Origin: a virus
Virus record (IMG/VR): IMGVR_UViG_3300037808_001516
Location: 32,001 to 96,000 of that record
Length of the DNA: 64,000 nucleotides
Reading direction: 5' to 3' (one strand)
Shown: positions 11,551 to 61,464 of the stretch, one piece after another
Position numbering within the stretch: position 1 is the first letter of the stretch
Layout: each line of letters opens with the position of its first letter
Translations under genes and position numbers: made by a program
The notes under the pieces: generated by a model
Seen by the model: only the letters and a program-made list of their open reading frames with translations
Databases searched by the model: none
What the model was told of the DNA's origin: nothing

Positions 11551-12665
11551 TGAGTATAAAAAGATATGTTGCAAATAAAGACAATACTATAACAAACGCA
11601 TTTAAAGAAAATCTACAAACACGCGCCACCGAAGCAAACATGGGTGCTTCTGATATAATTGAGGTTTTTTCAATTTATGGCCAGGCATCGACATCTTCAG
11701 CCGAGCAGGCTAGAATACTAATCGAATTTCCAGTTTCTCAGGTTGTTTCAGATAGATCAGCTTCCAGGATTGCAGCCTCTGGCAGTGTAAGTTTTGTTTT
11801 AAAGTTGACAAATGCTGAACATTCCTTTACCACCCCATCTGACTTTACTTTGAGTGTGTATCGTCTCTTAAATCCCTGGACAGAAGGTACAGGACTAGAC
11901 ATGGAAACCTACACAGATACTGGTGTAAGCAGTTGGACTTACAGAGTCTCTGGTTCACAATGGAGCGGCGCCGACGGGAGTTTCGCGGATAATACGCGAT
12001 CGGATGTGGCTTTTGAATCGGGAACAGAGAATCTAGAAGTAGATATTAGTGACATTGTAGAAGACTGGATTGATGGAACAGCAAATAATTATGGCCTGTT
12101 GATAAAGCTGTCAGGATCCGCAGAGAATGTTGTCGGAGGCGCCGACCCAATCGCGGAAAAATCTTACTACACAAAGAGGTTTTTTGCAAGACAATCTCAA
12201 TATTTTTTCAAAAGGCCAATAATCGAAGCGAGGTGGGATAGTTCTTCAGTACATACAGCCTCTCTTCCAAGTCCTTATGTTAGAGCGGACGAGTACTTAT
12301 ATAAAATAACGAATTTTAAATCGTCGTATAAGACGTATGAGAATGTAACATTTAAGGTGAATACAAGAAACAAAGACTGGCAACCAAACGTCTATACTGT
12401 TGCCACGAACAAAGCACCCGTTGACTTGGTTGATGAATCCTATTATAAAATTAGAAGAGTGGTGGACAATTACGTAGTTGTTGATTATTCAACTGGAAGC
12501 GCGCCAGCGTATTCCAAGCTATCATACAATGCGACCGGATCCTATTTTGATTTTGATATGTCAAATTTAGAACCAAACTATTTATATGAAATAAGCTTTT
12601 TAAGAAGAAACGAAAACGATTACATCGAACAGAAAGAGAAATTTAAATTTAGAGTTGATCCATGA
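11550..12665 (+). CDS. Baseplate-associated protein with DNRLRE-like beta-sandwich
   Basis: ARILIEF...W.EGTG...VDISDIVEDWIDGTANNYGLLIK...RPIIEARW pattern; TAATG-coupled to the gp6-like gene. Confidence 0.55.
   Translation: MSIKRYVANKDNTITNAFKENLQTRATEANMGASDIIEVFSIYGQASTSSAEQARILIEFPVSQVVSDRSASRIAASGSVSFVLKLTNAEHSFTTPSDFTLSVYRLLNPWTEGTGLDMETYTDTGVSSWTYRVSGSQWSGADGSFADNTRSDVAFESGTENLEVDISDIVEDWIDGTANNYGLLIKLSGSAENVVGGADPIAEKSYYTKRFFARQSQYFFKRPIIEARWDSSSVHTASLPSPYVRADEYLYKITNFKSSYKTYENVTFKVNTRNKDWQPNVYTVATNKAPVDLVDESYYKIRRVVDNYVVVDYSTGSAPAYSKLSYNATGSYFDFDMSNLEPNYLYEISFLRRNENDYIEQKEKFKFRVDP
12577..12585 (+). promoter_or_regulatory. Putative late promoter ACTATTTAT inside the upstream CDS
   Basis: Exact motif about 76 nt upstream of the 3452-aa gene start. 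Confidence 0.4.
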
Positions 12666-15600
12666 CAGACTACAGAGCAAAGACAGAGAAATCAAAATCA
12701 TCCGATAGAAAAGAAAAATTCTTTACTAGAAGAAATATCCCCTCGGCTAACGAGAACCGTCAAGGTTTAACATCAAAAGAGCAGGAGTCGGACGGTCTAA
12801 TAAAGAAGACCAGAGATATTACAAACAAATATAGACCCGACATCATTGTAAAAGACCCAAGCACTTTCGCGTTCTTTGGCAGTGCTAAAAAATACTATGA
12901 AGACGCTTTCTCCAACATTGTTAATTATTATCCGTTTGACGGATCAAGAAAAGAAATATTGGAGTGGTATGAGACAGCAACATCAGTCGAGATTGGAATG
13001 CTACACAATCATTGGCCATCATATGTCGGCCATGTCTCGATCGATTCACAACAATATATAAGTTTTTATAGTGGCCCTCAATCAATTGCTGAGTCAGAGT
13101 ACATGGGAGCATACACTCGCGGAGAGACGGGACTGAGACTGGATCCCTCCAAAGGAAATACAGTTGAGTTTTGGCTGAAGAAGGGCAGCTGGTCTATTCC
13201 GGAAGAAGTAGTGTTTGACATAGGGTCATACCCTGGAAAGGTCTCCGCTGCAAACGGTGGCCAGTTTAAGTTATATCTTTCAAATTCTTCTGGCTCACCA
13301 TTCCACGTGGACTATAGTATCGGTACAACCGGAATTTCTGCAACAAACATAGGGTCGTCTAATATTACAACTAGCTCTGTCGGAGACAGTGCTTGGCACC
13401 ATTATGCGCTTAAGGTTCACCAAGAGGATAGTAAACTTCATATGAAGTTGTACGTGGACGGTAAATACGACTCTCTTACGACTTCTTCTGTGGCTACTAT
13501 GGGTAGCGTCGACACATATATGTCCGGCCGCATTGGCGCCGCTCAAGCCGACACCACAGGATCTTTATCAGGATCCATGGATGATTTTAGGTTTTGGAAA
13601 GGGAAGAGAACGTCAAAACAAATCAGTAGATTTTTCGACCAAAAAGTATTTGCTAGCGAAAACTTAGAGGAAACCTATGAGACTAAATTGGGATTGTACT
13701 ATAGATTTAATAAGCCAGCAATAGCTGATACCGAGACAGATAGATTAGTTGTAGATTACTCCGGAAACGACATCACTGGTCAAATATATAAATACGACAA
13801 CACTGTGAGGGTAGCGGAGTCCGCAATAACAATATCCCCATACACTTCAGCATCAGAATTGCAAGACCCCCACCTTGAGGATAAAAGCAGCGCCGTACAG
13901 GATCTGAAGGTTGATTTGGTAAATATAGGAGAATCTTACGACATAAACAACGCTTCTAATTTAAAAAATTTCGTACCAGAATGGGTCTTTGACAACAACA
14001 ACGATGGACTTTCTAATCCAGACAGTCATGTGTCTATATTGTTTCATCTGTTGGCATCTGAATTTGACGAGATCAGACAAAAGATCGATGGCATCAAGCT
14101 TGAAAAATTACCCAGATACGAATCAATTACTCAAGAAATTACAAGCCACGAAGACTTTTCTCAGTTAGGAATGTCGTCAAGCTACATGCAAAACAACTTT
14201 TTCATCGGATGTGATGATAGTGGAGAAATATACGCTCCATCTTTAGGTTCTCATGCTGAATTTTCAGTCAGGAAATGTGAGAACGTCGGATTTAATGTTG
14301 TTCAGAAGCCCTTGTCGAGCGTAGATCCGAATGATGAACAGGATCTTAAGGTCGCGCAAGTATCAATAACGAAGCCATTCGAAGAAATAAGAAGAGCGAT
14401 TCTTGAAAATGTATATTCATCAGCTAAGTATATGTTAAAAAGAAAAGGCACCGCCACAGCTTTTGGCGCGGTACTAAGATCATATGGCGTTGATGAGGAT
14501 CTAGTGTCTCTTAACATCTATGGAAGAAACTCTGAGACTTTTATAGACAACTCAAAATTAGATACGGCCATCGACGAAAGAAATAGTGTCTATTTTGGAG
14601 AGAACCTGAATTCGACAATATTTCTATCGTCATCGGATAACGAGGAAAGAACTTACCTACAAGCAGACACGGATGAAACAGAATATACATTTGAAGGCAC
14701 ATTCATGTTTCCCTCCTTTCGAGATAAGCAGCATGATACAAACACCTCGTCTATCTTTGGTGTTTCCGAGGTTTCTGCTATTAATAACAACCTGACAGCG
14801 CCCGCAACCAATAATGCTGATTTTGTTGTCAAAGTGGCGAAGGACAATCTTTCTTCTGACGATGCCAAGTTTATCTTGACGTCTCCCGCAGGAATCATAT
14901 CAGATCTGGAATCAAATGTATTTAGAGATGTTTATGATAATTCTCGATGGAACATAGCCCTAAAGGTTGTAAAGGATCTAGATAACAAATTTGTAAGCTC
15001 TTCCGCGGCAACGTACAAGGTAGAGCTTGTAGGTCACAATCACATATTGGATACACTCCAAAATTCGTTTAGCATCACTTCGTCTTTGACCCAAGCCGAA
15101 TATGAAAACTTCCGAAGCGCACATAAAACAATCTTTATCGGCGCACAAAGAACCAACATAACAGGATCAGTAGTTACTTCGACTGACATCAAGGTTGTGG
15201 ACTTCAACGGATGGAATGACGACCTTTCATTAGACGAGCTGAAAGTTAGATCTATGACACCATCAACCACTGGTAGAGACAATTCAGATACTTACAGAGA
15301 AAACTACAACACGGTAAATAAACTGAAAGATAAGAACAAGATTTTTTCAATTCAGTTTGATGCTATATCTGCCTTATCATCGGAAAATACTTTGGTTGCC
15401 GTAGATGCAACCTCTGGATCCGTAGACCATGTGGCAAGGTATGGACAATTAATTGGAAACAAGTATCCAGCAAAGTCCACAGTGTTCTCCAAAAACCTAA
15501 CAAATGTAATACAGAGGGAGTACTTGCCGGTTGTGAGAAACATTCCTCTTGGCAACGACCATGGAGAACAGGGAATACAAACCAAGGCAGCAGAGATAAA

Positions 15601-18600
15601 CAAGTTTGACCTCTCTTCCAGACCACAGAGTAAGCTACTTTCTTTTGAAAAGAGTATGTACCAAGCAATTTCAAGAGAGATGGTCGACTTTGTGGGAGGG
15701 CTGTTGTCATTTAACAATCTGATAGGTGAGCCAGTAAACAAATATAGGAAGAGTTATAAGATGTTAGATCATCTACGTCAAAAATTCTTCGAAACGGTGG
15801 AGAGCGAAAATCAATTCGAAAGATTCGTAAGTTACTTCCGGTGGATCGACAAGTCTGTAGGACACTTCCTAGATCAGATGGTTCCCGCAACCGCAACTAC
15901 CAACACAGGCATAGAAGATGTTATAGAATCGCACGCACTAGAAAGAAACAAGTACGACCACAAGGCACCATTTGTGGAGAGAAAAGAGTATGACTCGGGA
16001 CTTGAGACTAACCTTTTAGCTATAAACGAGCTTCTTTATGACTGGGAGCACGGCCACAATTCTGACAGCGAGGCTGATCATTGCTTGTGGCAGAAAGACA
16101 GGAAAGAGAGGACGGGAGATAGAGAGACCATAAGAAAAGTCTTAACCACTGTGGTCTCAGGATCAACCTATGTTACCAGAAACCTAGTAAAGCCGTATCG
16201 ACACACTATAGATAGGCAAACTCTATTGAACATAGGGTCAAACAGAAACGCAAACAAGAATAAAGATTTATATAAAATAGTCAATGAGGGTAAAGAGATC
16301 TCCATATCTTCAAGCGATATTTATGAATTCAAGCAATGCAACGATGTAATAAACCCGCAGCAAGAAAAGATATATTCAGCGAAGACTAACACGACAACAA
16401 CAGATAGTTACCTTGACGCAGATTCAGACATGATTCTACCGTTCAGTTTATACAGCTCTTCAGTTGGTGTAGATTTCGAGAATTTCAAGCAAAACCTAAA
16501 GATAACTAACAACCATGACGGAACGCCTTCGTTACAAAGTCCATTCGTCAAGAGTCTCGTCGGAGGCATGCCTCATAGGAGCGTCAAATTTGGCACTGCT
16601 GACGCTGACCGTCCCGAAGCATACGATGTATCATCTTCTGCAAATACACTCACCATAAAGCAAACCTCGGCCCCTAAGTCCATGTTTCACCGTGATTTAG
16701 GAGGAGCCCGGTTCTATCACATTGGAAATGTAAAAACCACAGAGACTCCCTTAGTAATCGGAAATTATTCTAAAGACTATGAAATTGTCATGACCAACGG
16801 CCGTTCGTTGAACAACAATTATTTGGTAGAGAACGAAGGTCTAAATTTGACAGGCGGTATTTCACAGGGCCTGTATGTTCCAGCTATCACCGAGTTTGAA
16901 GTTCCTCAGAGGCCAGCGCGAGACCACGTCATAGTTAATCGCTTTAACGCGCCAGGAGGAGCAGAATCATCAACTCCACAGGGCATGAACAGGGAATCCT
17001 TAGAGTACTCAGTGTACAGTACTGTAAATTACAGAAACGGCGTGGTTCGATACATAGAAGATTTCCTGTCAGAAGAACACTCAGAGCAATTCGGATACCG
17101 ATCCGGCAGCACGACACAAGCTTCTAGACACATGACGAATAGAAACACCGGCAAAAAGACGGGGTCTTTAGGTCAAGAGCTGGAATACGACAACAACTAC
17201 GTCCAGCACGAAATACCACAAAATGATTTTGGATATTCTTGGGTGACGTCATCTGCAAATGAAAGCGTATACAGTTTTCTAAATAAGAATGAAAACACCG
17301 GTCATCAACATTTGCTTAACATATCTGGAGCCCTGAAATCATCTCAGACGATAACTTTCTTGGGAACCTCAGAGTTGACGCCAAACTTAGACTTTGTGAA
17401 TTTAAATACCTTTACAACTAGAAGTTTGACGTCTGATGTGAACATGCTGACAAACAACTCTGCAGACTTAAACTCAATCGTACTTAATCGCCAGGGACCA
17501 TACGGATGGCCATCTTGGAAACAATTAAAGGGAGAGCAACATCCCATTACGAAAGCACACAAGAAAAACAACAAGCTTTCGGTTGTTTATCGTACACACA
17601 ATTCAAAAAAATATGCTTTTGTGGATTCTATTAAGGGTGATTATGAGTTCGACTTCAAAGACACAATTGACATTAGCGACACTAACACTTCCGCAAGATT
17701 GGTTGACAACTATGATGAGATGTATATTACATCTAAGTTCAATCCATTGAACGTAAACTTAACTAGATTTGACAACACCAGTATCAGTTTAGAAAATCTA
17801 GATTTGGCAATTCGCTCGGCCATCGGTGTACCTATTTTAGCAGTAAACCAATTATCTCAGCATCACATGTGGACAAACGATGAATACTATTTGGGAACGG
17901 TTTTGCGTGACGCATCCAGACATAGCGATGGACTATCTTTTGATGAAGAAGATGAGTTCATGATGTTTAGCCCTGAAGGGGCCCTGAGTGAGGATGAGCA
18001 AGCAATGCTGTCAACTGCGCTTGGTGGTCTACGCGAGTCGGCCGCCGTGTCTATGCGTGCCACAGTACAAAACAAAATAACAGGCTTCGCTCAAAGAAAG
18101 TTTGAAAATTTGGTAATAGCAGGAGTGCAAAACCCAGAAATATGGTCAAAGTATATTGACCATGACAAATATGTTTCAGAGACTAGTTTTGCAGTTCTTA
18201 AGAATTTTCTTACGGAGGGTATTACCTCAAGAACAATGAGAGAGTTGAACTACATAGAGACAATATATCCGAGAGAGATAAATACCTACAAATCAAAAAT
18301 CAGAGCTAGGGATAGCTTTGATTTCTTTGGATGGAATAGTACCAGGTCTAATAGACAGTTAATCTTAACTGGAAACGTTTCTTACGATACTCCTCTGATC
18401 GAGAACTCAGATGTCCGATTGTTTTTTCCTCAATCTGCCTTGGCCGAAGAAAGAGAGTTTAAAAAGTCGTTTTACAATACGGTGGAGATGGTCGATATAA
18501 ATTCAACGGGATCAGATGCTTCGACAACGTCTAGCACACACATCACGGCTAGCAGCTGGGTCCTTGATTCTCGTGAAACTTTTACTGGCTTACCGTTGAA

Positions 18601-21600
18601 TATAACATCTTCATACTTCACAGAAGGGGATAATTTCCTTAGGTCCCGATCACAGGGCACAAGGGGAGAAGGCATTTTACAAAACGATTACAGTATTTTT
18701 GGATTAGGATATAATGGACTTCGGGGTGCACCTCCGATATCACCAGTATATAACAGAAGAATACCGCAGATTCACGGAAACAACTCTTACTTGGCTGGTG
18801 AGGCGAAATACGAAGCCGCCGCTACTCGAACGGGCCCGTTTTACGATTCATATCAAGACTACGCCGAAGGTTTAAGATCCGCAGGTCAGACATATTCGCT
18901 GATTCCTGAATTCCGAATGCACAAAGTTATAGAAGATTATCTTACAACCGTCGATTCTTCGAAGTTTGCAATTGATGAGTTCCTAGAATTAACAGGGACA
19001 GTATACCACACATCTTCAGGTAACCTGTCAGTTGGAACGCAGTTTTTTGAAACATACTCGATGACTGATTTTATGAAATATTTTCAAGTTGTGAAAGATG
19101 ATATCGAAAATGAGAATCTTGGACTGGCTCCTGGCAAATTAACATTAAGGTGTCAAGCCGTGAAAAGATTTTTGCCTTATAGAGGATTCTATCCAGCAGA
19201 AAGAGTCGTCCAGATATCCGAAGTTTTCGACAGGAGTTATCTTCGACCCGGGTCATATGGTTCAAAGTATATTGAAAACGATTCTATAAAAGAAGATGCA
19301 GCTAAATCTTATCTAGATTTAAGAATTGAAAATTCAAAAGCTCAAGCAATAAAGCCGCTTATGGCGCCTGGTGTGTTAATGAATTCGATAAAAACTGGCC
19401 TCGCGGTTGATTATCCGATATTCAGCTCATCAGTAGATACTGGTGTGAGTTATATTTTCAACAATCATATCACATCAGCTCTAGACGACTTTTCTTTGCT
19501 TTCTCTCGGAACATCAACCGCTTTCACCGGGTCCCTAATTAACTCGTCTGTAGATGAAGGCATACCGAGAGTTAGCGGTACTCTGGATTACAGAGTGTCT
19601 TTTGAAGATTTGTTATATCCACACCGCATTTGGGATCAAATTGTTTATGACAACGAACCACACCCAAGCGCGAGTATGTTGCATGGGACAACAGATCACC
19701 TTAAGGTGCTCGACCGTCCACCACGATTTGGAAACATCGATAGAGATATGTCTACTCAGTATGGCGCAATGAATTTTGAAACGTCAGAAAATGCATTTGC
19801 AATTTCTATGCTGCCTTTCACATTAGCTACTAATAATTTTTGTGCAGAAACTGTAAATTTCTTCTTGGAGGACGGAGTGTTGAATACTGCTATTTCGGCC
19901 CCGGGTGCACAATATTTTGATAACTTGACCTACAAGATGAGAGTGCATCTCGCGAACGAAGACACAGTCATGTACGATAGACACTCTGCTTTCGGCCCAC
20001 CAGTAGACGAAGGCAATCCAGAGATCACTACGTATAACCTGTCTAGCACAAAGATTTACAACGATGACGGTACCGCCGCCTCGGCTTCCGTGTCTTTCGC
20101 CGCTTCTACGGCTAGACCCCTCACTGAGATTCCAACAGAGGTCACGGCGTCGTCTCTTACTGTACTAAATGCTGTATTTGACTCTTTTCCAGGTTTTAGC
20201 TTCGAGTCTGCAAACTCTCAAACCGTTAATGTAAAATATTACGATTCAGAAAACTTTGTCGGAGATAACATAAAGTTTAAGTTTGGAGAAGCTTACACTA
20301 GTGCAACTCAAACATTTCTAAGTACAGCTCTCCAGCACCCAAGAATCACCATTTCTGGCGCCGCTGGCCAGCACAAATTTAGATTTTACAACTCCAACAC
20401 TTCGGGCGGTACGCAGTCGGACCTTTCGGATACTGCTTATGTCAATGTTTATGATACTAGCGCCGGCGCCTTACGCGATGGTTCAGAAGTCGCTCAAGAG
20501 TTTTTCACAAAGTTTGTGTCAATACCTGTAATGAGCCAATCTTTTGCAGCTTTCTTGGGCACCGGCGCGGACGCCGGGAAGCTTAACTTGTTCGGACGAA
20601 CTAGAAGTATAGATTCGGACATATCGATAACATCAGACATATCAATCGCCGGATTTAGTCATTATGACGACACATCCACAAAATTCATAGCCAGAATAAC
20701 AACAGGTAGCAACTCAAATGGTCATACGTCTGGGGATTACGGAACAGAGCAAATAAACTTTTCTTCTTCTGCTACATCCACTTCATGGGCTGCTCGTCTG
20801 GCTGCGCTGGATTCCTCAATTAGCAGATACGTTAATATTGGCGCCGCAGAGCCATTGTCTGCCGCTACAGTCGCTACGGCAACTAGGGACGCAGTTTTGG
20901 CCTTATCGTCTTCAACTGCCGCCTATCAGATTTCTGCATCAATCGGAGCCTCTTCCAACATTGTGACCTTGAGAAGACTAGACTCAGGTTCGCAGGGAAA
21001 TGTTCCGATAGGCAACCCAGGAGAAGCTGTTTCTGCAACTGATCTAGTTTCTTCGATCAGTACCAGTTTCGCCGGCGGTGCGCTACAAACCATCGCCGGA
21101 AAAGCAGATGTTTTTACTCCAACTACTGCGATTCAATCCGGATCTCATGGACATTTACCATATGTGCCACCCTTTTTAGATCCGAATACTAGCCCTTACG
21201 CAGAGTTAAGTTTTACACCAGCTAGCGCTGGAGAATATACGATTCCAGAGGTTCTAAATGACCTGCAAATAACATATTACAACATGCCTGCGCCGTCAAA
21301 TCAGTCAGAAAACATTAATTACAACGCAGCAATGGTGCTTTCTGCATCCATAGACTTTAAGAATCACATAAAGTTGCGAAGCGATCACACTAATACGAAC
21401 GTCGGATCAAATACTGTCGACCCAAACTCCGTTGATTTAAACAGATGGGTGATTAGACCCAAATGGGAAACTCCAATAATCGATTTCTCATTTGTCACAG
21501 CCAGCGCTATCAATCTGAACGATAACAGCGAGCAGCAAGTTTCGGGATCTCCATGGAAAACGAGATACCAGTCAAATTACTATGAAACGTTAAAGACATC

Positions 21601-23020
21601 CAGTGTTCCTTACCTGACGGCTTCTACTGGAATGTGGCACCAGAGCGGAAATCTTCTTGACGAATTAGCCCAAAAGGGATATTACATGGTCGTCGAAGCT
21701 GGAGATCAGAAAAACCCGGACAGGTTCGCCGCGAAAGACCTGGCAACTAAAGTTGGATTCTTGGATGGTTCTGAATCTAGCAAGAGGATACGTTTAGGTA
21801 ATCTTGCAACTGAAAAAACAGTGTGGGAGTCAGTAGTAGCGATCCCCTTTTACAATGATCCTAAGCAAGGTATTAAGTTCTTTAACCTTAACGCCGAAGC
21901 TTATCGCGATGCTACAAAACTAAACCATATAAACATGATAAGGCACTCAGCCAGAGTTTCTGATAACTCACTGGACCAGAACACTAAGAAACAGCTGAAT
22001 CAACTGTACGACAACTTCCTTAACACCCCCGGTACAAACGCCGCGGAAAACATAGCCTATCAGCTCAGAATGATGGAAAAATTTATTATACCGCCTCAAT
22101 TTGATTTCTTGTCTAACAATGTTGATTGCGCCGATGTGGCACCGTTTGTACAGTACATCTTCCAATTTAGCGGGAAATTCACAGATAAAGATTTAGCTAG
22201 TATGTGGCAAAACTTATATCCCAACTCAGAACAGGGATCTGGAAAAGCAAAACATTCTTCTCCATATCCAAACTCAGGACAACCGTCGGGTATATCGCTA
22301 GACTATCCAGATGTAGAATACGTTTCTGGATTTTTAGACACAGACTCTGTCGGAATATTTCAGGGAATGAGTTCGAATTATGAAGATACTTCTGAATTTT
22401 TGGAAAATGAAGTACGATGGCTCGTATTCAAAGCGAAGCAGCGAGGTACCTCCCGATACGATACCATTGTTGAGAAATCTGTATCCAAAAACAACCACTA
22501 TGATCTGATATCTGTCAATGGCAGAGAGATCAGCGCGGAAAGCATGAAGTCAGCACAATTGAAGCCACAGTTTAACTGGCCGTATGATTATTTTTCCCTA
22601 GTTGAATTGGGCAAGATTGAGTCCAAAGTAGATTTTTACGACGACATCAGAACCGTAGGAGTACCTAAAGAGAGTCCTCGCAGATTAGAGAAAGAAAGAG
22701 GGAACCAACAAGCGAGTCCACCGAAAACACCGGCTGTTGGCTCAACCTCTTCATCGACCTCATCTTCGAGTTCAACCACAACAGTCGCTACATCGATGGT
22801 ATTCAGGGAAGTGTTGCTAGAAGACACAACGACGCCCTCGACGAGGATATTTAATATTACTGGTGGCACGGTGTCGTCAGGTACTGAACAGTTGTTTGTA
22901 AATGGAGTTCTGCAATCACTAGGCGGCACAAACGATTATACGATATCGGGCAACACTGTGACGTTTACCTATGATTTGGATGATGGAGATTCTGTCGTAA
23001 TCTCTTATGTTAAAGACTAA
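12662..23020 (+). CDS. Giant (3452 aa) baseplate protein, gp7/P2 gpI-like core with LamG/ConA-like domains and a C-terminal Ig-like module
   Basis: LamG-like TVEFWLK...WHHYAL...LYVDGK...SGSMDDFRFW; MLKRKGTATAFGAVLRSYG resembles the gp7/gpI KGT motif; S/T linker then EQLFVNGVLQ..DYTISGNTVTF..D.V.ISY C-terminal domain. Confidence 0.6.
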   Translation: MTDYRAKTEKSKSSDRKEKFFTRRNIPSANENRQGLTSKEQESDGLIKKTRDITNKYRPDIIVKDPSTFAFFGSAKKYYEDAFSNIVNYYPFDGSRKEILEWYETATSVEIGMLHNHWPSYVGHVSIDSQQYISFYSGPQSIAESEYMGAYTRGETGLRLDPSKGNTVEFWLKKGSWSIPEEVVFDIGSYPGKVSAANGGQFKLYLSNSSGSPFHVDYSIGTTGISATNIGSSNITTSSVGDSAWHHYALKVHQEDSKLHMKLYVDGKYDSLTTSSVATMGSVDTYMSGRIGAAQADTTGSLSGSMDDFRFWKGKRTSKQISRFFDQKVFASENLEETYETKLGLYYRFNKPAIADTETDRLVVDYSGNDITGQIYKYDNTVRVAESAITISPYTSASELQDPHLEDKSSAVQDLKVDLVNIGESYDINNASNLKNFVPEWVFDNNNDGLSNPDSHVSILFHLLASEFDEIRQKIDGIKLEKLPRYESITQEITSHEDFSQLGMSSSYMQNNFFIGCDDSGEIYAPSLGSHAEFSVRKCENVGFNVVQKPLSSVDPNDEQDLKVAQVSITKPFEEIRRAILENVYSSAKYMLKRKGTATAFGAVLRSYGVDEDLVSLNIYGRNSETFIDNSKLDTAIDERNSVYFGENLNSTIFLSSSDNEERTYLQADTDETEYTFEGTFMFPSFRDKQHDTNTSSIFGVSEVSAINNNLTAPATNNADFVVKVAKDNLSSDDAKFILTSPAGIISDLESNVFRDVYDNSRWNIALKVVKDLDNKFVSSSAATYKVELVGHNHILDTLQNSFSITSSLTQAEYENFRSAHKTIFIGAQRTNITGSVVTSTDIKVVDFNGWNDDLSLDELKVRSMTPSTTGRDNSDTYRENYNTVNKLKDKNKIFSIQFDAISALSSENTLVAVDATSGSVDHVARYGQLIGNKYPAKSTVFSKNLTNVIQREYLPVVRNIPLGNDHGEQGIQTKAAEINKFDLSSRPQSKLLSFEKSMYQAISREMVDFVGGLLSFNNLIGEPVNKYRKSYKMLDHLRQKFFETVESENQFERFVSYFRWIDKSVGHFLDQMVPATATTNTGIEDVIESHALERNKYDHKAPFVERKEYDSGLETNLLAINELLYDWEHGHNSDSEADHCLWQKDRKERTGDRETIRKVLTTVVSGSTYVTRNLVKPYRHTIDRQTLLNIGSNRNANKNKDLYKIVNEGKEISISSSDIYEFKQCNDVINPQQEKIYSAKTNTTTTDSYLDADSDMILPFSLYSSSVGVDFENFKQNLKITNNHDGTPSLQSPFVKSLVGGMPHRSVKFGTADADRPEAYDVSSSANTLTIKQTSAPKSMFHRDLGGARFYHIGNVKTTETPLVIGNYSKDYEIVMTNGRSLNNNYLVENEGLNLTGGISQGLYVPAITEFEVPQRPARDHVIVNRFNAPGGAESSTPQGMNRESLEYSVYSTVNYRNGVVRYIEDFLSEEHSEQFGYRSGSTTQASRHMTNRNTGKKTGSLGQELEYDNNYVQHEIPQNDFGYSWVTSSANESVYSFLNKNENTGHQHLLNISGALKSSQTITFLGTSELTPNLDFVNLNTFTTRSLTSDVNMLTNNSADLNSIVLNRQGPYGWPSWKQLKGEQHPITKAHKKNNKLSVVYRTHNSKKYAFVDSIKGDYEFDFKDTIDISDTNTSARLVDNYDEMYITSKFNPLNVNLTRFDNTSISLENLDLAIRSAIGVPILAVNQLSQHHMWTNDEYYLGTVLRDASRHSDGLSFDEEDEFMMFSPEGALSEDEQAMLSTALGGLRESAAVSMRATVQNKITGFAQRKFENLVIAGVQNPEIWSKYIDHDKYVSETSFAVLKNFLTEGITSRTMRELNYIETIYPREINTYKSKIRARDSFDFFGWNSTRSNRQLILTGNVSYDTPLIENSDVRLFFPQSALAEEREFKKSFYNTVEMVDINSTGSDASTTSSTHITASSWVLDSRETFTGLPLNITSSYFTEGDNFLRSRSQGTRGEGILQNDYSIFGLGYNGLRGAPPISPVYNRRIPQIHGNNSYLAGEAKYEAAATRTGPFYDSYQDYAEGLRSAGQTYSLIPEFRMHKVIEDYLTTVDSSKFAIDEFLELTGTVYHTSSGNLSVGTQFFETYSMTDFMKYFQVVKDDIENENLGLAPGKLTLRCQAVKRFLPYRGFYPAERVVQISEVFDRSYLRPGSYGSKYIENDSIKEDAAKSYLDLRIENSKAQAIKPLMAPGVLMNSIKTGLAVDYPIFSSSVDTGVSYIFNNHITSALDDFSLLSLGTSTAFTGSLINSSVDEGIPRVSGTLDYRVSFEDLLYPHRIWDQIVYDNEPHPSASMLHGTTDHLKVLDRPPRFGNIDRDMSTQYGAMNFETSENAFAISMLPFTLATNNFCAETVNFFLEDGVLNTAISAPGAQYFDNLTYKMRVHLANEDTVMYDRHSAFGPPVDEGNPEITTYNLSSTKIYNDDGTAASASVSFAASTARPLTEIPTEVTASSLTVLNAVFDSFPGFSFESANSQTVNVKYYDSENFVGDNIKFKFGEAYTSATQTFLSTALQHPRITISGAAGQHKFRFYNSNTSGGTQSDLSDTAYVNVYDTSAGALRDGSEVAQEFFTKFVSIPVMSQSFAAFLGTGADAGKLNLFGRTRSIDSDISITSDISIAGFSHYDDTSTKFIARITTGSNSNGHTSGDYGTEQINFSSSATSTSWAARLAALDSSISRYVNIGAAEPLSAATVATATRDAVLALSSSTAAYQISASIGASSNIVTLRRLDSGSQGNVPIGNPGEAVSATDLVSSISTSFAGGALQTIAGKADVFTPTTAIQSGSHGHLPYVPPFLDPNTSPYAELSFTPASAGEYTIPEVLNDLQITYYNMPAPSNQSENINYNAAMVLSASIDFKNHIKLRSDHTNTNVGSNTVDPNSVDLNRWVIRPKWETPIIDFSFVTASAINLNDNSEQQVSGSPWKTRYQSNYYETLKTSSVPYLTASTGMWHQSGNLLDELAQKGYYMVVEAGDQKNPDRFAAKDLATKVGFLDGSESSKRIRLGNLATEKTVWESVVAIPFYNDPKQGIKFFNLNAEAYRDATKLNHINMIRHSARVSDNSLDQNTKKQLNQLYDNFLNTPGTNAAENIAYQLRMMEKFIIPPQFDFLSNNVDCADVAPFVQYIFQFSGKFTDKDLASMWQNLYPNSEQGSGKAKHSSPYPNSGQPSGISLDYPDVEYVSGFLDTDSVGIFQGMSSNYEDTSEFLENEVRWLVFKAKQRGTSRYDTIVEKSVSKNNHYDLISVNGREISAESMKSAQLKPQFNWPYDYFSLVELGKIESKVDFYDDIRTVGVPKESPRRLEKERGNQQASPPKTPAVGSTSSSTSSSSSTTTVATSMVFREVLLEDTTTPSTRIFNITGGTVSSGTEQLFVNGVLQSLGGTNDYTISGNTVTFTYDLDDGDSVVISYVKD

Positions 23021-55719: not shown

Positions 55720-56530
55720 AATTACCAACGATGTGAAAAAAGTCTACTTTGACCCATCAACTATTGAAACTATTGACAAATCTGTGTTAAACTTTATTAA
55801 AGGATTGAATCTTTTCTCGAATACTAATGAAGGGTGGAGAGAGGTTCCAGTGGTGTGGGGAACTTCAGAGAGAGCATTCCTGGTAAAGAACAGCAAGGAC
55901 ATAAGAGACCAGCAAGGGATCCTAAAGTTGCCAATAATATCGGTATATAGAAGCTCCATAGTGAAAGACATGTCGAGTAAAGGAGTATTCCAGGGCAATG
56001 TGCCTGGCAACAACGACGAACAAGGAGGAAGCCTTGTTGTGTCGAGAGTCATAAACCAAGATAAAACAAAGAACTTTGCAAACGCAGACGCAAAGAGACT
56101 CTATAAGCAGGAGAACTATCCTTACGATAATCAGAAGATTGTATACAAAACAGTCAGTGCACCAATGCCTGTAAATGTAACAGTATCATATGAAATTACG
56201 ATAAGAACAGAATATCAGCAACAAATGAACGAATTAATGTTGCCTTTTATCACAAAACCTGGTACTATAAACTATGTAAATTTACAAGAAAGCGAACACA
56301 GATTTGAAGGATTCGTAGACGGAAACTTTAATGACCAAGGAAACTTGCAGAACTTCTCTTCTGATGAGAGAAGGTTTGAGACCAAGATATCATTAAGAGT
56401 TGTCGGGTATTTAGTCGGTGAAGACAAAAATGGAGAAAGACCACACTACTCGATCCGAGAAAATTTTGTAGAAGTAAAGATGCCAAAAGAAAGAATTATA
56501 ATAGATCCCGATGAGTGGGACAAGACATAA
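55712..56530 (+). CDS. Tail completion/sheath stabiliser (gp15-like)
   Basis: VPVVWG..E, LKLPIISVYR, PMPVNVTVSYEITI...QQMNEL; synteny after gp13/gp14. Confidence 0.65.
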   Translation: MSEITNDVKKVYFDPSTIETIDKSVLNFIKGLNLFSNTNEGWREVPVVWGTSERAFLVKNSKDIRDQQGILKLPIISVYRSSIVKDMSSKGVFQGNVPGNNDEQGGSLVVSRVINQDKTKNFANADAKRLYKQENYPYDNQKIVYKTVSAPMPVNVTVSYEITIRTEYQQQMNELMLPFITKPGTINYVNLQESEHRFEGFVDGNFNDQGNLQNFSSDERRFETKISLRVVGYLVGEDKNGERPHYSIRENFVEVKMPKERIIIDPDEWDKT

Positions 56531-57160: not shown

Positions 57161-57169
57161 ACTATTTAT
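57161..57169 (+). promoter_or_regulatory. Putative late promoter ACTATTTAT
   Basis: Start of a long AT-rich leader before the 1350-aa fibre gene. Confidence 0.65.
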
Positions 57170-57278
57170 AAGCAGACGTTCGTTAGCTTCATTTAAATAA
57201 CATTCCCTCATATTTAATACTCTTATATTTTATAAAATAATATTATTTTTTATATAACATATATAGGAGGAAAAATAT

Positions 57279-60200
57279 ATGGCTTATGAAATAAGTTCTT
57301 CCGTCGCAAACTCTACTTTCGCTATTCAGGGGGTGACCTCATCCGTTACAAACGGATTCGAGCAAGGCGGCAAGTTTAGCCCAGACGGAACGAAATTGGC
57401 TGTGGGCACATATCGCCATGGCGGAGCCGGATCAACGGACTATGGTATAGACATCTATACCTCAGCCTCATCTGGCGGATGGACTCGAACAGAATCCATC
57501 GACACCGGAACCAGCGGCCCCGGGGCCCACATGGAGTGGTACTCAGCCACTAATATCTTTGCGATTGTTGGAAACAACATCAAAAACTTTCTCAGTGGCG
57601 CTTCTGGTTGGTCAGCCGGTCAGGTTAACGTTGCAACTGGTGGTGATCGTTACTTTGAATTCAACCCAAGTAAAACGATTCTCGCAACATGGAAAGGTAC
57701 AGACCAAAACTGGAGGTCTATCTATTCAGGCTCAGGAAACTGGACTTCAACATCAGACCAGTCCGCAGGCAGCTATGGCGACCTGCAGAGTTTGGCTTGG
57801 ATATCTGATGATGTTATCGCTTTAGGTTATCCAGAGAACTCATCCTACAGAGGTATCTTGTTGACTTACAAGACAACTAACGGTGGCTCTAGCTATAGCA
57901 TGGCTGAATATCTGAATGGCGATTCAGTCCAGTTGCCAGGTATGGGTGCTGCTTTGTATTATCACACGTCGAGCAACGCTCTTCTCGTGGGAACACGCGC
58001 CGCTGCAGCTGACACTGAGAATGCTAAAAACAAGCTAATCTTGATCCAGTCAGGTTCTGAAGGTCACCTACCTGCGAGCTATACCTCTCACACGGTTATA
58101 GACTCTGGTAAAAGACCGATAGACGGCTTTCAGACTGCACCACAGTCTGGAAACGGTGATAGAGTGCTCATGGTTACCCATGATGACGGTGCTGACGATG
58201 CTGACTTGTTAGCAATCGAATCCGGATCGGCCGGATGGAAAGTTACAGTAATCGATGATAACATTCAAGGCCCAAGTTCGGAAGGTAATATTGATATATC
58301 ATCTCTCGGTGCTGTTGTTTCGAATGACATTGGAAACGGCTCCGGCCAGGCTACCTTTGTAGTCAGGCAGATGATATCTGCAGACCCAGCACTTGCATCT
58401 ACTGTTGCATCGACTGTTGGCAGTTCCGGAGGAACCGTTAAGGCAGGTGGTACTAATTCATCCCCTGTAGGTCAGGTTGTAATACCGTCAAACGCGCTTG
58501 GCGGTAATGTGTCCGTCAGTGTTGATACCGCGCATGCGTCGTCGTCCGTCAAATTAGGCTTAAGAACGCTAGGAGAAGCTTCTAGTAATATAATTCGCCT
58601 AACGCCACATGGCACAAAGTTTAGTTCAGCAGTTACAGTTACGATTCGTTTGAAAGATGGAGCTTCAACCGACAACTTACAGTTGTTGAAAAGAAACAGT
58701 GAAACCGGACAATGGTATGATACCGGAGTCAGCTTATCTGTTTCTTCAGGCACAGTATCTTTCACCACTACTAGCTTTAGTGATTATATAATAATAGGAG
58801 GACAAAAAGTGGCTAGAACAAAAATAAATAATATACAATTAGATAGATTAGAGAGGGCAAACTCGGTCTTAGCTTCGGCTTTGAACCTTACAGCTTCGGC
58901 AAACACAGTTGCACTGGATGTGATTGATTCAGACAGATTTTTACTGCAATCAGCAAGTGGAGAATCTCAGATAGTCTCAGCATCGGCTATAGCAACATAT
59001 ATGGCAACAAAGGTACAGCCTACCCATATCCAAACAACGGATACGGACACAGCAGGGACATATAGAGTCACGTTTACAGACTCAACAGACACAGATACTA
59101 CATCACAAATCTTTACTGATGGTGATCTAGTTTTTAATGCAGGAACAAATGCTTTAAGCATGGCAATCCTGTCAGCATCATCAGATATCAGCGGCTCAGC
59201 TGCACTTTTCGTAGGATCTAGTGCAACCGTTAATAATGGGCTCACAGTCACTGCTGGTGGCGCAACAGTTACAGCGGGCGGACTTACCGTCTCGGCTGGC
59301 GGAGCAAGCATAACAGGACCAGTAACTTCATCTGCAGCTGTAAGGACCGGTGCAGGCTTGATTACTGGTCAATCTATTTTGGACATTGGTACAGACAGTG
59401 ATCCTGATGCACTAAGAGTTGGTTCAAGTAATGTTAATGTTTCATTGTCTCTTGAGTCGAGTGGTCCATCCTCCGGTGCATTTACTGTAGCCGGCGGCGT
59501 CGGTATCGGCGACGACCTTTTCGTCGGTAATGAAATATCTGGTTCTGGTGATCTTAAAGCAGGAACCATCACCATGGCGGAATTCACTGTTGCTAGAAAT
59601 GGTAACACTGATATTGATGGTACCTTGAACGTTGAAGGTGTTCCAACTTTTCAAGCTGGTGCAGTCTTTTCGTCCGGTATTACAACCGCAGGTGCAATTG
59701 CAGGGGCAACAACAATCTCTGGTTCGAGCACAATCTCAGGCCATGCCTTGGATATCGAAACGGATGCAAACGTCGCAGGTGACCTTACTGTTGTTGGTGA
59801 TCTTGTAATTCAGGGCGCCACAACAACGATTGAAACCACAAATCTTCTCGTGGAAGATAGCTTGATTGAGATCGCCCGCGGCAATGGCGGCTCTAGAGCA
59901 TCCAATGCAGGAGCTGGTCTCTTTATTTCTGGTACATTGGCTAACGATGTTTCACTTACTGTACAAGGCAGCGGCGGACGACTTAGAGTCAGCGGTTCCA
60001 CCCCTGGTTTTGATACTGTGTTTGGCGGTTCTTACGCCATCAACGGAAGCTCGGTCCTCAACAACACAACACTTGGAAGCTCTGTTGTTAATTCAAGCTT
60101 GACTTCCCTCGGGACACAAGCAGAAGCGTTGAACATGGGCTCTCAGGGCATTACTGCTGCTGGCGCAATCGCTGGTGCATCAACTGTATCTGGTTCTGGT

Positions 60201-61331
60201 CTTGCATCTGCAGGTGGCGGTCTCGCTGCCGGCTTTGGTAGCCAGTTCACCGTAAGCAACGCAGGCGCAGTTGTCGCGGCTAGTTTGAATAACAGCGCTG
60301 GTGGAATCACCAACGCTGGATCGATCAACGGCGCAACTACTATTTCTGGCTCTGGCCAGTTATCTTTAGCAGTTGGGATTAGTGCTGCAAACGAAAACTT
60401 CACTGTAAGCAGTGCAGGCGCAGTTGTTGCTGCTAGTTTGAACAACAGCAACGGCGGCATTACCAACGCTGGTTCAATTGCTGGCGCAACTAGTGTTGAC
60501 GGTTCAGGTGATCTTACCATGGGTACAATCACGATGACTGGCTTCGCTGTTGATGCAGACGGTGACACTGCTCTCAAGAGTCTTACTGTTGATGATGGAT
60601 CGACAATCGGTACAGACAGCGACTCAGACATGCTGACTCTTACCAATGGTTCTGACATCACCGTTGCTTCAGACCTTGATCTTGTTGTTAGCGAAGGTAA
60701 ACTTAAGCTTGGCTCTACAGCAGTAACTTCTACTGCTGCAGAACTCAACTTGCTTGATGGTGTATCCGGTCTCGTCCAAGCTGACTTTACTAAGTTGGCA
60801 GCGGTTGACGCGACTGCTGCAGAACTCAACTTGCTTGACGCTTCTGCAGGATCCGATACGGCTCTTGCTTCTGGCGACGGTGTCATTTTTGGTGATGCAT
60901 CAGACAGCAACAACACTAAGAAGGCTACAATGCAAAACGTTGCAGACCTTTTGGGCGCTGGTGATGGCTTGCAGGTTAACGACTCAACCGCTGCAATCAG
61001 AATTGATTATGTCAACGACATTTTCTCTTCAGCATCACACATGAACGCTGGATTGTCATACGATATGATAACAGCATCTTTAAGTGCAACACCATTATCA
61101 TCATCATTGCAGGTTTACCTCAATGGTATGCTTCAGGTTGTTTCTGGAGCTGTCGACATCAGTGGCTCTTCTTCAGGTGTATATACTCCTGTTTCTGCTT
61201 TTGACTATAAGCTTTCCGACGGATCAAGTGAATTTGGTCTTGGAAATGCTATGGACACAGCTACTAAAGTTATCTTCGCAGAGCCAATTGACAATGATGA
61301 CGTAGTACAAATCAAGTACATCAAAAAATAA
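57279..61331 (+). CDS. Large fibre/appendage protein: beta-propeller-like + ZU5-like + repetitive shaft + C-terminal Ig-like module
   Basis: AGGAGG SD; WD-like blades (FSPDGTKLAVG, FEFNPSKTILA); ZU5-like VGSSGGTV...VVIPSNAL...IRLTPHGTKFSSAVTVTI...TTSFS; G/S/A/T repeats; AAELNLLD fibre repeats; LQVYLNGMLQ...DY...D.VQIKY end. Confidence 0.7.
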   Translation: MAYEISSSVANSTFAIQGVTSSVTNGFEQGGKFSPDGTKLAVGTYRHGGAGSTDYGIDIYTSASSGGWTRTESIDTGTSGPGAHMEWYSATNIFAIVGNNIKNFLSGASGWSAGQVNVATGGDRYFEFNPSKTILATWKGTDQNWRSIYSGSGNWTSTSDQSAGSYGDLQSLAWISDDVIALGYPENSSYRGILLTYKTTNGGSSYSMAEYLNGDSVQLPGMGAALYYHTSSNALLVGTRAAAADTENAKNKLILIQSGSEGHLPASYTSHTVIDSGKRPIDGFQTAPQSGNGDRVLMVTHDDGADDADLLAIESGSAGWKVTVIDDNIQGPSSEGNIDISSLGAVVSNDIGNGSGQATFVVRQMISADPALASTVASTVGSSGGTVKAGGTNSSPVGQVVIPSNALGGNVSVSVDTAHASSSVKLGLRTLGEASSNIIRLTPHGTKFSSAVTVTIRLKDGASTDNLQLLKRNSETGQWYDTGVSLSVSSGTVSFTTTSFSDYIIIGGQKVARTKINNIQLDRLERANSVLASALNLTASANTVALDVIDSDRFLLQSASGESQIVSASAIATYMATKVQPTHIQTTDTDTAGTYRVTFTDSTDTDTTSQIFTDGDLVFNAGTNALSMAILSASSDISGSAALFVGSSATVNNGLTVTAGGATVTAGGLTVSAGGASITGPVTSSAAVRTGAGLITGQSILDIGTDSDPDALRVGSSNVNVSLSLESSGPSSGAFTVAGGVGIGDDLFVGNEISGSGDLKAGTITMAEFTVARNGNTDIDGTLNVEGVPTFQAGAVFSSGITTAGAIAGATTISGSSTISGHALDIETDANVAGDLTVVGDLVIQGATTTIETTNLLVEDSLIEIARGNGGSRASNAGAGLFISGTLANDVSLTVQGSGGRLRVSGSTPGFDTVFGGSYAINGSSVLNNTTLGSSVVNSSLTSLGTQAEALNMGSQGITAAGAIAGASTVSGSGLASAGGGLAAGFGSQFTVSNAGAVVAASLNNSAGGITNAGSINGATTISGSGQLSLAVGISAANENFTVSSAGAVVAASLNNSNGGITNAGSIAGATSVDGSGDLTMGTITMTGFAVDADGDTALKSLTVDDGSTIGTDSDSDMLTLTNGSDITVASDLDLVVSEGKLKLGSTAVTSTAAELNLLDGVSGLVQADFTKLAAVDATAAELNLLDASAGSDTALASGDGVIFGDASDSNNTKKATMQNVADLLGAGDGLQVNDSTAAIRIDYVNDIFSSASHMNAGLSYDMITASLSATPLSSSLQVYLNGMLQVVSGAVDISGSSSGVYTPVSAFDYKLSDGSSEFGLGNAMDTATKVIFAEPIDNDDVVQIKYIKK
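58809..61331 (+). CDS. Nested in-frame product (840 aa) from an internal GTG start
   Basis: AGGAGG at 58796-58801, 7 nt before in-frame GTG 58809 (Val511), preceded by an AT-rich stretch; would read MARTKINNIQLDRL. Confidence 0.6.
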   Translation: MARTKINNIQLDRLERANSVLASALNLTASANTVALDVIDSDRFLLQSASGESQIVSASAIATYMATKVQPTHIQTTDTDTAGTYRVTFTDSTDTDTTSQIFTDGDLVFNAGTNALSMAILSASSDISGSAALFVGSSATVNNGLTVTAGGATVTAGGLTVSAGGASITGPVTSSAAVRTGAGLITGQSILDIGTDSDPDALRVGSSNVNVSLSLESSGPSSGAFTVAGGVGIGDDLFVGNEISGSGDLKAGTITMAEFTVARNGNTDIDGTLNVEGVPTFQAGAVFSSGITTAGAIAGATTISGSSTISGHALDIETDANVAGDLTVVGDLVIQGATTTIETTNLLVEDSLIEIARGNGGSRASNAGAGLFISGTLANDVSLTVQGSGGRLRVSGSTPGFDTVFGGSYAINGSSVLNNTTLGSSVVNSSLTSLGTQAEALNMGSQGITAAGAIAGASTVSGSGLASAGGGLAAGFGSQFTVSNAGAVVAASLNNSAGGITNAGSINGATTISGSGQLSLAVGISAANENFTVSSAGAVVAASLNNSNGGITNAGSIAGATSVDGSGDLTMGTITMTGFAVDADGDTALKSLTVDDGSTIGTDSDSDMLTLTNGSDITVASDLDLVVSEGKLKLGSTAVTSTAAELNLLDGVSGLVQADFTKLAAVDATAAELNLLDASAGSDTALASGDGVIFGDASDSNNTKKATMQNVADLLGAGDGLQVNDSTAAIRIDYVNDIFSSASHMNAGLSYDMITASLSATPLSSSLQVYLNGMLQVVSGAVDISGSSSGVYTPVSAFDYKLSDGSSEFGLGNAMDTATKVIFAEPIDNDDVVQIKYIKK
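60246..60492 (+). repeat. Internal duplication with 153-bp (51-aa) period in the fibre shaft
   Basis: FTVS.AGAVVAASLNNS.GGITNAGSI.GAT at 60246 and 60399; related GIT.AG.IAGA.T.SGS units occur upstream. Confidence 0.8.
60732..60838 (+). repeat. 26-bp exact direct repeat encoding TAAELNLLD
   Basis: ACTGCTGCAGAACTCAACTTGCTTGA at 60732-60757 and 60813-60838. Confidence 0.85.
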
Positions 61332-61355: not shown

Positions 61356-61388
61356 AAGCCCGCCTTTTTGGCGGGCTTTTCTTTTTCT
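61356..61388 (+). terminator. Intrinsic terminator
   Basis: AAGCCCGCC-TTTTT-GGCGGGCTT followed by TTCTTTTTC after the fibre gene. Confidence 0.88.
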
Positions 61389-61390
61389 TA

Positions 61391-61420
61391 TTTCCTTTGC
61401 GCAAAGGAAAAACTATTTAT
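61391..61420 (+). promoter_or_regulatory. Perfect 20-bp palindrome abutting late promoter ACTATTTAT
   Basis: TTTCCTTTGCGCAAAGGAAA (61391-61410), motif at 61412-61420, upstream of the sheath gene. Confidence 0.65.
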
Positions 61421-61464
61421 TAAGTAAAATAACATTTATCTTGATCCGCAAAGGAGATATTAAC

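Follow-up and report, generated by a model that had tools for sequence, protein, structure and literature searches.

A putative start signal conserved inside a phage fibre gene, directly behind a ZU5 domain with a predicted self-cleavage site

Introduction

The DNA analysed in this study is a stretch of 64,000 nucleotides (the window), bases 32001-96000 of the 143.9-kb IMG/VR viral record IMGVR_UViG_3300037808_001516, which is estimated to be 79% complete and comes from an uncultured T4-core marine myovirus. In a slot with neck genes on one side and the tail sheath gene on the other it holds a fibre gene (57279..61331, plus strand) that forms one uninterrupted frame of 1350 amino acids, and the question raised by this locus is whether the gene yields one protein or two. 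An original prediction, made from the letters of the window, had described the product as a propeller head, a ZU5-like domain and a fibre, and had proposed that a start hidden behind the ZU5-like domain adds an 840-residue bare fibre to the full-length chain; a recent fusion of two genes was left as the alternative. Comparison with related fibre genes now makes it very likely that the internal start, a GTG at 58809, is used by ribosomes, and the same comparison points to a place in the chain where the ZU5 domain may cut itself.

Results

The internal start signal and its conservation

The internal site consists of a Shine-Dalgarno sequence, TAGGAGGA (58795..58802, plus strand), which is coded in frame as (I)-G-G and kept in relatives, followed after 6 nt by the GTG. 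Its AGGAGG core (58796-58801) and the GTG (58809-58811, in frame as codon 511, with 58809 - 57279 = 1530 = 510 x 3) stand exactly where the original prediction had placed them, in a junction peptide that reads ...T-T-S-F500-S501-D-Y-I-I-I-G-G-Q-K-V511-A-R-T-K-I-N-N... The open reading frame (ORF) from this GTG (58809..61331, plus strand) would encode a bare fibre of 840 amino acids, (M)ARTKINNIQ..., which aligns with free-standing fibres. The duplex of the site with the anti-Shine-Dalgarno sequence is worth -10.2 kcal/mol, the same value as at the main start. The AT-rich flank noted earlier is real: in a 50-nt stretch with the GTG at its centre the GC content falls to 22%, the minimum of a gene whose mean is 48%, and the predicted folding energy of this stretch, 0.0 kcal/mol, is the weakest in the gene. 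However, of the ten AGGAGG sites inside genes of the window, two are followed by an in-frame start at a distance of 4-12 nt, and such a combination is thus common enough by chance that the case has to rest on comparison with relatives.

An unbiased HMMER search with residues 1-510 retrieved 77 relatives, among them about 25 fused head-ZU5-fibre proteins. For the locus search a 10-sequence alignment (A2) was used; a single-protein scan gave one locus. One of the metagenome-scan patterns held [MV]ARTK, and the loci found with it are biased for M or V at position 511; the following count is therefore restricted to proteins retrieved with residues 1-510. In all 25 fused proteins the position of residue 511 is occupied by M or V, followed by an A-R-T-K-like sequence. 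This residue aligns with Met1 of three free-standing fibres, whose starts, checked as the original prediction had suggested, read M-A-K-S-K-I-N (P0007), M-A-R-T-R-I-N (P0055) and M-A-R-T-K-L-N (P0113). Two of them, P0007 and P0113, are encoded in the same genomic slot as the fibre gene, in the shared order gp13-like gene, 162-aa gene, gp15-like gene, small genes, fibre, sheath, with no head gene upstream. A further free-standing fibre gene (L054), also at the equivalent genomic position, has the start region TATAGGAGGAATAAGC-ATG-GCT-AGA-ACA-AAA, a string identical to that of internal junctions.

The conservation extends to nucleotides that the protein does not fix. GGAG(G) stands 6-8 nt before an ATG or GTG in each of 24 distinct fused junction DNAs. 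These DNAs sample at least 12 lineages whose ZU5 domains are less than 60% identical, with a pairwise median of 44%. The peptide over the motif comes in four versions under constant nucleotides: I/L-G-G is written [AT]TA GGA GGN, V-E-D is GTG GAG GAY (L019, L036), T-E-V is ACG GAG GTT (L050), and I-G-D is ATA GGA GAT (L051). GGA encodes the first glycine in all 20 cases, compared with 11.7% of first glycines in other GG dipeptides and 19.5% of all glycines in the same ORFs, and the second glycine codon, with its third base beyond the GGAGG core, takes A, T or G there. Valine at the start position is always GTG (8/8), a codon that accounts for 10.3% of valines. Third positions upstream of the motif are near saturation, and neighbouring fourfold-degenerate sites vary freely.

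Pairing with the anti-Shine-Dalgarno sequence reaches -9.3 kcal/mol or lower in 20 of 20 junctions (the distinct ones from the first two scans) vs 4 of 522 (0.8%) control in-frame ATG or GTG codons from the same ORFs. For mRNA structure and GC content the site has a median rank of about 3% within each gene, with the gene of the window the most extreme, and bacterial ZU5 homologues in a 42-sequence alignment have no G-G at this position. A motif that stays constant under four peptides, together with frozen synonymous sites, shows in these alignments that what selection maintains in the nucleotides is the internal start signal, a ribosome-binding site, and not a linker peptide. The Met1 alignment, the L054 string and the synonymous conservation thus lend strong comparative support to the proposal of two isoforms of 1350 and 840 amino acids. 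The alternative of a recent fusion with a relic start is not supported, as the fusion is old and widespread and its start signal is under selection. Two considerations weigh against use of the internal start: the sequences compared are phylogenetically related, so that the counts are not fully independent, and ribosomes elongating from the main start could mask the internal site.

The ZU5 domain and its predicted cleavage site

The ZU5 domain (residues 373-509; 58395..58805, plus strand) is recognized by its fold, by structural alignment and by Pfam matches in relatives. An AlphaFold2 (AF2) model of residues 369-508 is a ZU5 beta-sandwich with a predicted local distance difference test score (pLDDT) of 85-97. 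VIA-align superimposes it on the ZU5 domain of ankyrin-B (4d8o) with Z 16.3 and a root-mean-square deviation of 2.4 Å over 126 aligned residues at 26% identity, and Foldseek finds the same structure with E 9e-8; further VIA-align matches are UNC5b (3g5b, Z 11.2), GAIN domains (Z 9-11) and the FIIND of rat NLRP1 (Z 8.7). On the fragment from the window the Pfam ZU5 model (PF00791) scores 15.5 bits (E 0.021), below the gathering score of 21 bits; among the 42 aligned relatives it matches 33 (E ≤ 0.1), the lowest E being 1.2e-8. The best phmmer match in PDB (E 0.13) is the ZU5 of ankyrin-2. The segment L-T-P-H-G-T-K-F at residues 441-448 is the conserved P-H-G-x-x-F core motif of ZU5; across the 42-sequence alignment P443 is invariant, and conservation of H444, G445 and F448 reaches 90% or more. 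The ZU5-like assignment of the original prediction is thereby borne out, with one correction. V511 does lie ten residues past S501, as had been stated; however, the domain does not end at TTSFS. The structural alignment with the ankyrin ZU5 covers model residues 5-141, or protein residues 373-509, so that the strand D502-G507 (DYIIIG; 58782..58799, plus strand; model strand E134-138, pLDDT about 91) is the last strand of the ZU5 fold, and V511 comes directly after the domain. We refer to this strand as the plug.

The predicted scissile bond is F500/S501 (codons TTT AGT, 58776..58781, plus strand), in the motif S-F/S. S501 is invariant and F500 at least 90% conserved among the 42 phage and bacterial sequences, and the model shows S-F-S in the turn from strand 492-499 to strand 502-506; the position two residues ahead of the cut is variable (S, R, K, Q, T, H). 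In the original prediction the serine found here (S499) in place of the His of known sites had been pointed out. It is no defect, since CARD8 and NLRP1 cleave at S-F/S, and in CARD8 the serine S295 is dispensable whereas Phe and Ser are essential; UNC5b, which does not cleave, lacks the motif and has Leu in the Phe position (PMC3210808).

What we regard as the strongest argument for cleavage is a natural experiment in two loci from independent samples (L004, L005). There the head-ZU5 gene ends ...S-T-F-TAG, the spacer 3' of it has its own AAGGAG, and the fibre gene begins ATG-AGT-GAG-TAT, that is M-S-E-Y-I-A-I-G-G, with the plug strand encoded at its start. Compared with fused sisters, which read S-T-F-S-E-Y-M-A-V-G-G, a 51-nt cassette of stop, Shine-Dalgarno sequence and ATG is inserted exactly where the F codon meets the S codon. 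The initiator Met is expected to be removed before Ser, and the products of the split genes would then equal both predicted cleavage products. The split fibre genes also retain TAGGAGGA, followed after 10 nt by a GTG behind the plug; the plug-less chain thus appears to be kept even where the head is encoded separately. Recoding of the stop codon at the F-TAG and F-TGA ends was considered and rejected, as three in-frame stops, of two kinds, stand in the spacer together with a Shine-Dalgarno sequence and an ATG of its own.

Orphan ZU5 genes that end exactly in ...S-T-F-stop were observed at L005:6001-8270 and L047:770-960. The genes that follow them start M-A-Y-E-V-S-T-S-V or M-A-Y-T-I-L-D-N-K, not S-E-Y. 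The N-terminus MAYE[IVL]SSS of the heads might itself be a plug for such strand-less ZU5 sockets; in the 143.9-kb record, at its estimated 79% completeness, there is no second ZU5 able to take the MAYEISSS N-terminus of the present protein.

From the conserved turn and the natural splits we consider self-cleavage of the ZU5 domain at F/S probable, although a number of observations tell against it. The nearest structural matches of the domain are the ZU5 domains of ankyrin and UNC5b, and we know of no report that these cleave themselves. No equivalents of the CARD8 residues His-270 and Glu-279 were found, nor a conserved second His in the 42-sequence alignment; a conserved basic K471 and an acidic E475 precede W479, as seen in the alignment only. 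The conserved H444, which would correspond to H624 of UNC5b and H252 of CARD8 (PMC3210808), is a structural His present also in non-cleaving ZU5 domains such as that of UNC5b. Finally, F is replaced by L (S-L-S) in P0138 and P0149 with the internal start retained, and the His of P-H-G is lost in L019 and L036, where the internal Shine-Dalgarno sequence and ATG persist. Cleavage is thus either not universal or not essential, and since the internal start survives these changes, the two features are separable in evolution.

The same observations would suit a protein in which the internal start is used and the ZU5 domain is an uncut structural adaptor, so that a covalent 1350-residue chain and the 840-residue fibre mix in one oligomer. 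This reading shares all the evidence for the internal start and takes the kinship with ankyrin and UNC5b, the missing CARD8 residues and the altered lineages at face value. We nevertheless think it rather unlikely. It leaves without explanation a Ser that is invariant and a Phe that is nearly so at a tight turn; UNC5b, which does not cleave, has no such motif and carries Leu for Phe (PMC3210808). Above all, the genes of L004 and L005 are split exactly at F/S, which is neither a domain border nor the internal Met, and a structural role predicts no such precision.

Could the signal be something other than a start?

If the Shine-Dalgarno motif and the M or V codon were the fossil of an old fusion, or if they encoded a structural Gly-Gly linker, only the full-length protein would be made. 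A linker of this kind behind a beta-strand is structurally plausible, and AGGAGG with an in-frame start does arise by chance inside genes of the window, as the count of two in ten given above shows. Neither version, however, accounts for motif synonymous sites that are frozen next to fourfold-degenerate sites that are free, for GGA in 20/20 and GTG in 8/8 cases when both are minority codons in these genes, or for four peptides that encode the same GGAG(G) when bacterial ZU5 homologues manage without G-G there. Moreover, the site is the least structured stretch of the mRNA and has been retained in at least 12 lineages at a median ZU5 identity of 44%. We therefore hold this explanation to be very improbable.

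Still less credence is given to a pause signal, by which the Shine-Dalgarno-like motif would halt elongating ribosomes, with no initiation, until the ZU5 domain has folded and cut before the fibre emerges. The motif does come directly after the last ZU5 strand, so that a halt there would fall together with completion of the domain. But a pause needs no ATG or GTG at Shine-Dalgarno spacing, and one is present in 24/24 DNAs and 25/25 proteins; an identical string forms the real start region of the free-standing orthologue (L054), and the split genes keep the motif though their ZU5 sits on another polypeptide.

An error of sequencing or assembly, such as an indel in the AT-rich run or the loss of a stop, might have joined two real genes, and the TAA TAA TAG read in the +1 frame just before the internal Shine-Dalgarno sequence might point to it. 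This reading is almost certainly wrong, because the junction is open, in the same fused frame, in independent assemblies (P0002, 100% identical on another contig, and a 59%-identical relative, sampled twice as L002 and L003). It is shared, with the peptide conserved across it, by more than 20 further contigs, and an off-frame TAG follows automatically from TAGGAGG. A frameshift into these +1-frame stops was likewise rejected, as off-frame stops are not conserved beyond the TAG inherent to TAGGAGG.

The propeller head and the fibre portion

The head (residues about 10-365; 57306..58373, plus strand) is the most variable module of the protein. The AF2 model of residues 1-375 is a 7-bladed beta-propeller with a mean pLDDT of 84 and a predicted template modelling score of 0.86, in line with the propeller assigned by the original prediction, and its best Foldseek matches are propellers of the WD40 type (E 1e-10). 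Relative to P0003 the head is only about 33% identical, whereas ZU5 and junction are about 90% identical; such a variable head on a conserved junction agrees with an exchange of heads through recombination at this ZU5 junction. Fused homologues span 950-2270 amino acids, some with non-propeller or multiple heads. Over its full length (57279-61331) the gene is also a mosaic with respect to a 1332-aa relative (L002:5892-9890), with about 33% identity in the head, about 90% in ZU5 and the fibre N-terminus, and long near-identical fibre blocks broken by unalignable segments, a pattern typical of recombinational module exchange.

The fibre part gave no meaningful phmmer match against PDB sequences. 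Its C-terminal 60 or so residues (...Y-L-N-G-M-L-Q...D-D-V...Y-I-K-K) are common to fused and free-standing fibres. The chaperone domain Peptidase_S74 (PF13884) is absent from the fibre protein of the window (P0001) by Pfam at E ≤ 1, and it is present at the C-terminus of several relatives of the 840-residue part, e.g. P0005 and P0008. Many fibres (P0005, P0008, P0010, P0012 and others) were seen to carry the G-A-I-A-G-A-T-T-I-S-G-S-G-type repeats of the 840-residue part and to end in PF13884 instead of ...Y-I-K-K; shared repeats with differing C-ends indicate that the repeat core is combined with different termini.

Genomic and transcriptional setting

Upstream of the fibre gene lie genes for terminase, portal, a T4-type major capsid protein and a gp13-like neck protein, then genes of 162, 272 and 106 amino acids and a 70-aa DUF5659 gene. 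The capsid protein is nearest to those of Flavobacterium phage immuto, Microcystis phage Mel-JY01 and Rhodothermus phage RM378. The 272-aa gene has a faint gp15 signal, detected in a relative; at window positions 56023-56041 it contains a further AGGAGG, which an in-frame GTG follows after 10 nt. The structural module is preceded by two giant ORFs, one of 2659 amino acids (1182-9161) and one of 3452 (12662-23020). The gene downstream of the fibre encodes the tail sheath, its Phage_sheath_1C domain lying past the end of the window (G000 96483-96788); the listed TTG start at 61441 is probably wrong, as an ATG at 61465 has the Shine-Dalgarno sequence AAAGGAG. Neither the whole fibre protein nor either half matches Pfam or PHROGs, and a tblastn search of 50,697 phage records gave no match for the protein, so that at this sensitivity the family is absent from cultured and deposited phages.

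The fibre gene looks like a transcription unit of its own. The motif ACTATTTAT occurs seven times in the window vs 0.68 expected, always on the plus strand and each time just 5' of a gene (9199, 12577, 40601, 49402, 52558, 57161 and 61412), and it is a candidate late-promoter element of the phage. One copy (57161..57169, plus strand) stands 110 nt 5' of the fibre ATG, and the copy at 61412 precedes the sheath gene. The main start at 57279, from which the ORF 57279..61331 (propeller head, ZU5 and fibre) is read, has the same Shine-Dalgarno sequence as the internal one, TAGGAGGA (57264..57271, plus strand), 7 nt before the ATG; the N-terminus MAYE[IVL]SSS is common to about 30 homologues. An intrinsic terminator with a 9-bp stem (7 G-C pairs) and a T-run follows 3' of the fibre stop (61356..61378, plus strand). 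Within the gene ACTATTTAT is absent and sigma-70-like matches occur only at background level, for which reason an internal promoter for the short isoform was rejected. With a promoter motif 5', none inside and a terminator 3', a short isoform, if made, would share the mRNA of the full-length chain.

Discussion

We propose that this monocistronic late gene gives, from one mRNA, two primary products, a 1350-residue precursor and an 840-residue bare fibre, the short chain being started from a full-strength ribosome-binding site written into the I-G-G-Q-K codons directly behind ZU5. In the precursor, the ZU5 domain would cut its own chain at F500/S501 in the manner of the FIIND of CARD8 and NLRP1, of PIDD and of Nup98. 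We infer that the 500-residue head is then held non-covalently, S-D-Y-I-I-I-G staying in place as the last ZU5 strand like a plug in a socket, and that chains started at GTG 58809, which lack strand 502-507, cannot hold a head. The ratio of the two starts would set the number of heads on a presumably trimeric fibre, mixed assembly would leave fewer heads than chains, and the non-covalent joint could make the head exchangeable or sheddable. Taken as a whole, with internal start, self-cleavage and docking as described, this model is in our opinion somewhat favoured by the present data.

The individual parts of this model have known counterparts. In FIIND, PIDD and Nup98/Nup96 the strand behind the cut keeps its place in the fold, and the two fragments hold together non-covalently; PIDD and Nup98/Nup96 autoprocess at H-F/S. 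The phage domain shares with the FIIND of CARD8 and NLRP1 a ZU5-type sandwich with S-F/S at the turn before the last strand, an invariant Ser position and a buried Phe. In contrast to FIIND proteins, the phage domain belongs to a virion fibre with no UPA, CARD or death domain, its sequence is nearest to the ZU5 domains of ankyrin and UNC5, and the fragment predicted to be released from the chain is a propeller head and not a signalling domain. The GAIN/GPS region of adhesion GPCRs (BAI3, 4dlo) is likewise an autoproteolytic beta-sandwich, as reflected in its Z scores, and cleaves at H-L/T; its post-cut strand (Stachel) stays embedded and tethers the fragments. Here the motif is S-F/S, and there is neither a helical GAIN subdomain A nor a membrane receptor.

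Bacterial ZU5 autopeptidases stand N-terminal in RHS and other polymorphic toxins, often beside a beta-propeller, and their predicted role is to free the filament at its base (Zhang et al. 2012, PMC3482391). The phage fibre resembles them in that its ZU5 precedes a long filamentous or repeat region in the chain and occurs together with a propeller, and bacterial homologues found in this study (P0168-P0196), which are proteins with signal peptides, have the same [ST]-F-S motif. The toxins differ in their C-x-H thiol motif and toxin cargo (PMC3482391), whereas the phage protein has F-S, a fibre as cargo and a superimposed internal start.

In-frame nested genes with their own Shine-Dalgarno sequence are well known in phages (T7 gene 4A/4B, lambda C/Nu3, phiX174 A/A*). 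As in these cases, one frame would give two products, the shorter of which arises from an internal Shine-Dalgarno sequence and start and lacks the N-terminal domain. The start in the fibre gene is distinct in lying directly behind a predicted self-cut site, so that only the docking strand and the head are removed, and we know of no fibre gene in which conservation of a Shine-Dalgarno sequence under four alternative peptide codings has been documented. Partial decoration of a tail structure from one gene is achieved by autoproteolysis of Tal in the lactococcal phages Tuc2009 and TP901-1 and by a frameshift in SPP1 (gp17.1/17.1*), in both of which long and short chains co-assemble and an extra domain is borne by some subunits, as we propose here; a frameshift or a Gly-rich cleavage site serves there, and internal initiation plus predicted ZU5 cleavage here. 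Self-cleavage within a phage fibre is also known from endosialidase-type fibres with Peptidase_S74 (PF13884), but the cut proposed here is N-terminal, belongs to another fold, and leaves the cleaved module retained rather than discarded.

A more general possibility, which we put forward tentatively and regard as doubtful in its full extent, is that, across a large group of marine myoviruses, exchangeable fibre heads are joined by ZU5 domains acting as a general connector of the socket-and-plug kind. Either a self-cut fused precursor or a separate gene ending exactly at the Phe would supply the socket, the plug would be a strand of 6-7 residues at the fibre N-terminus, and a second start behind the plug would yield plug-less chains and so tune the number of heads per fibre. 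With a non-covalent joint, the head might be shed or pulled out on binding of a receptor, as in the release of GAIN/Stachel or NLRP1, and heads might be swapped by recombination at the conserved ZU5 junction. The orphan ZU5 genes of L005 and L047, with their M-A-Y... neighbours, hint that further kinds of N-terminus could fit into sockets of this type.

Each part of the proposed mechanism is thus familiar, namely ZU5, FIIND and GAIN domains that cut and stay bound, and in-frame nested genes. In the literature searched, ZU5 co-occurs with tail fiber or bacteriophage only in one paper, on bacterial polymorphic toxins (PMC3482391). If the proposal is correct, this would be, as far as that literature shows, the first phage virion fibre for which self-processing by a ZU5 module is described. 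The gene is also a case of overlapping signals, with a ribosome-binding site held within coding sequence by purifying selection and four peptide solutions for GGAG(G). Gene callers give a single protein for such a gene and overlook the short isoform. The plug and socket could moreover serve as a connector in protein engineering.

The control of fibre heads in these viruses bears on host recognition and on how abundant marine phages exchange receptor-binding parts as modules. Two starts and a self-cut would together dose a variable, probably ligand-binding head that is attached non-covalently, and the principle of a domain that is cut but stays bound would then extend to the viruses of bacteria.

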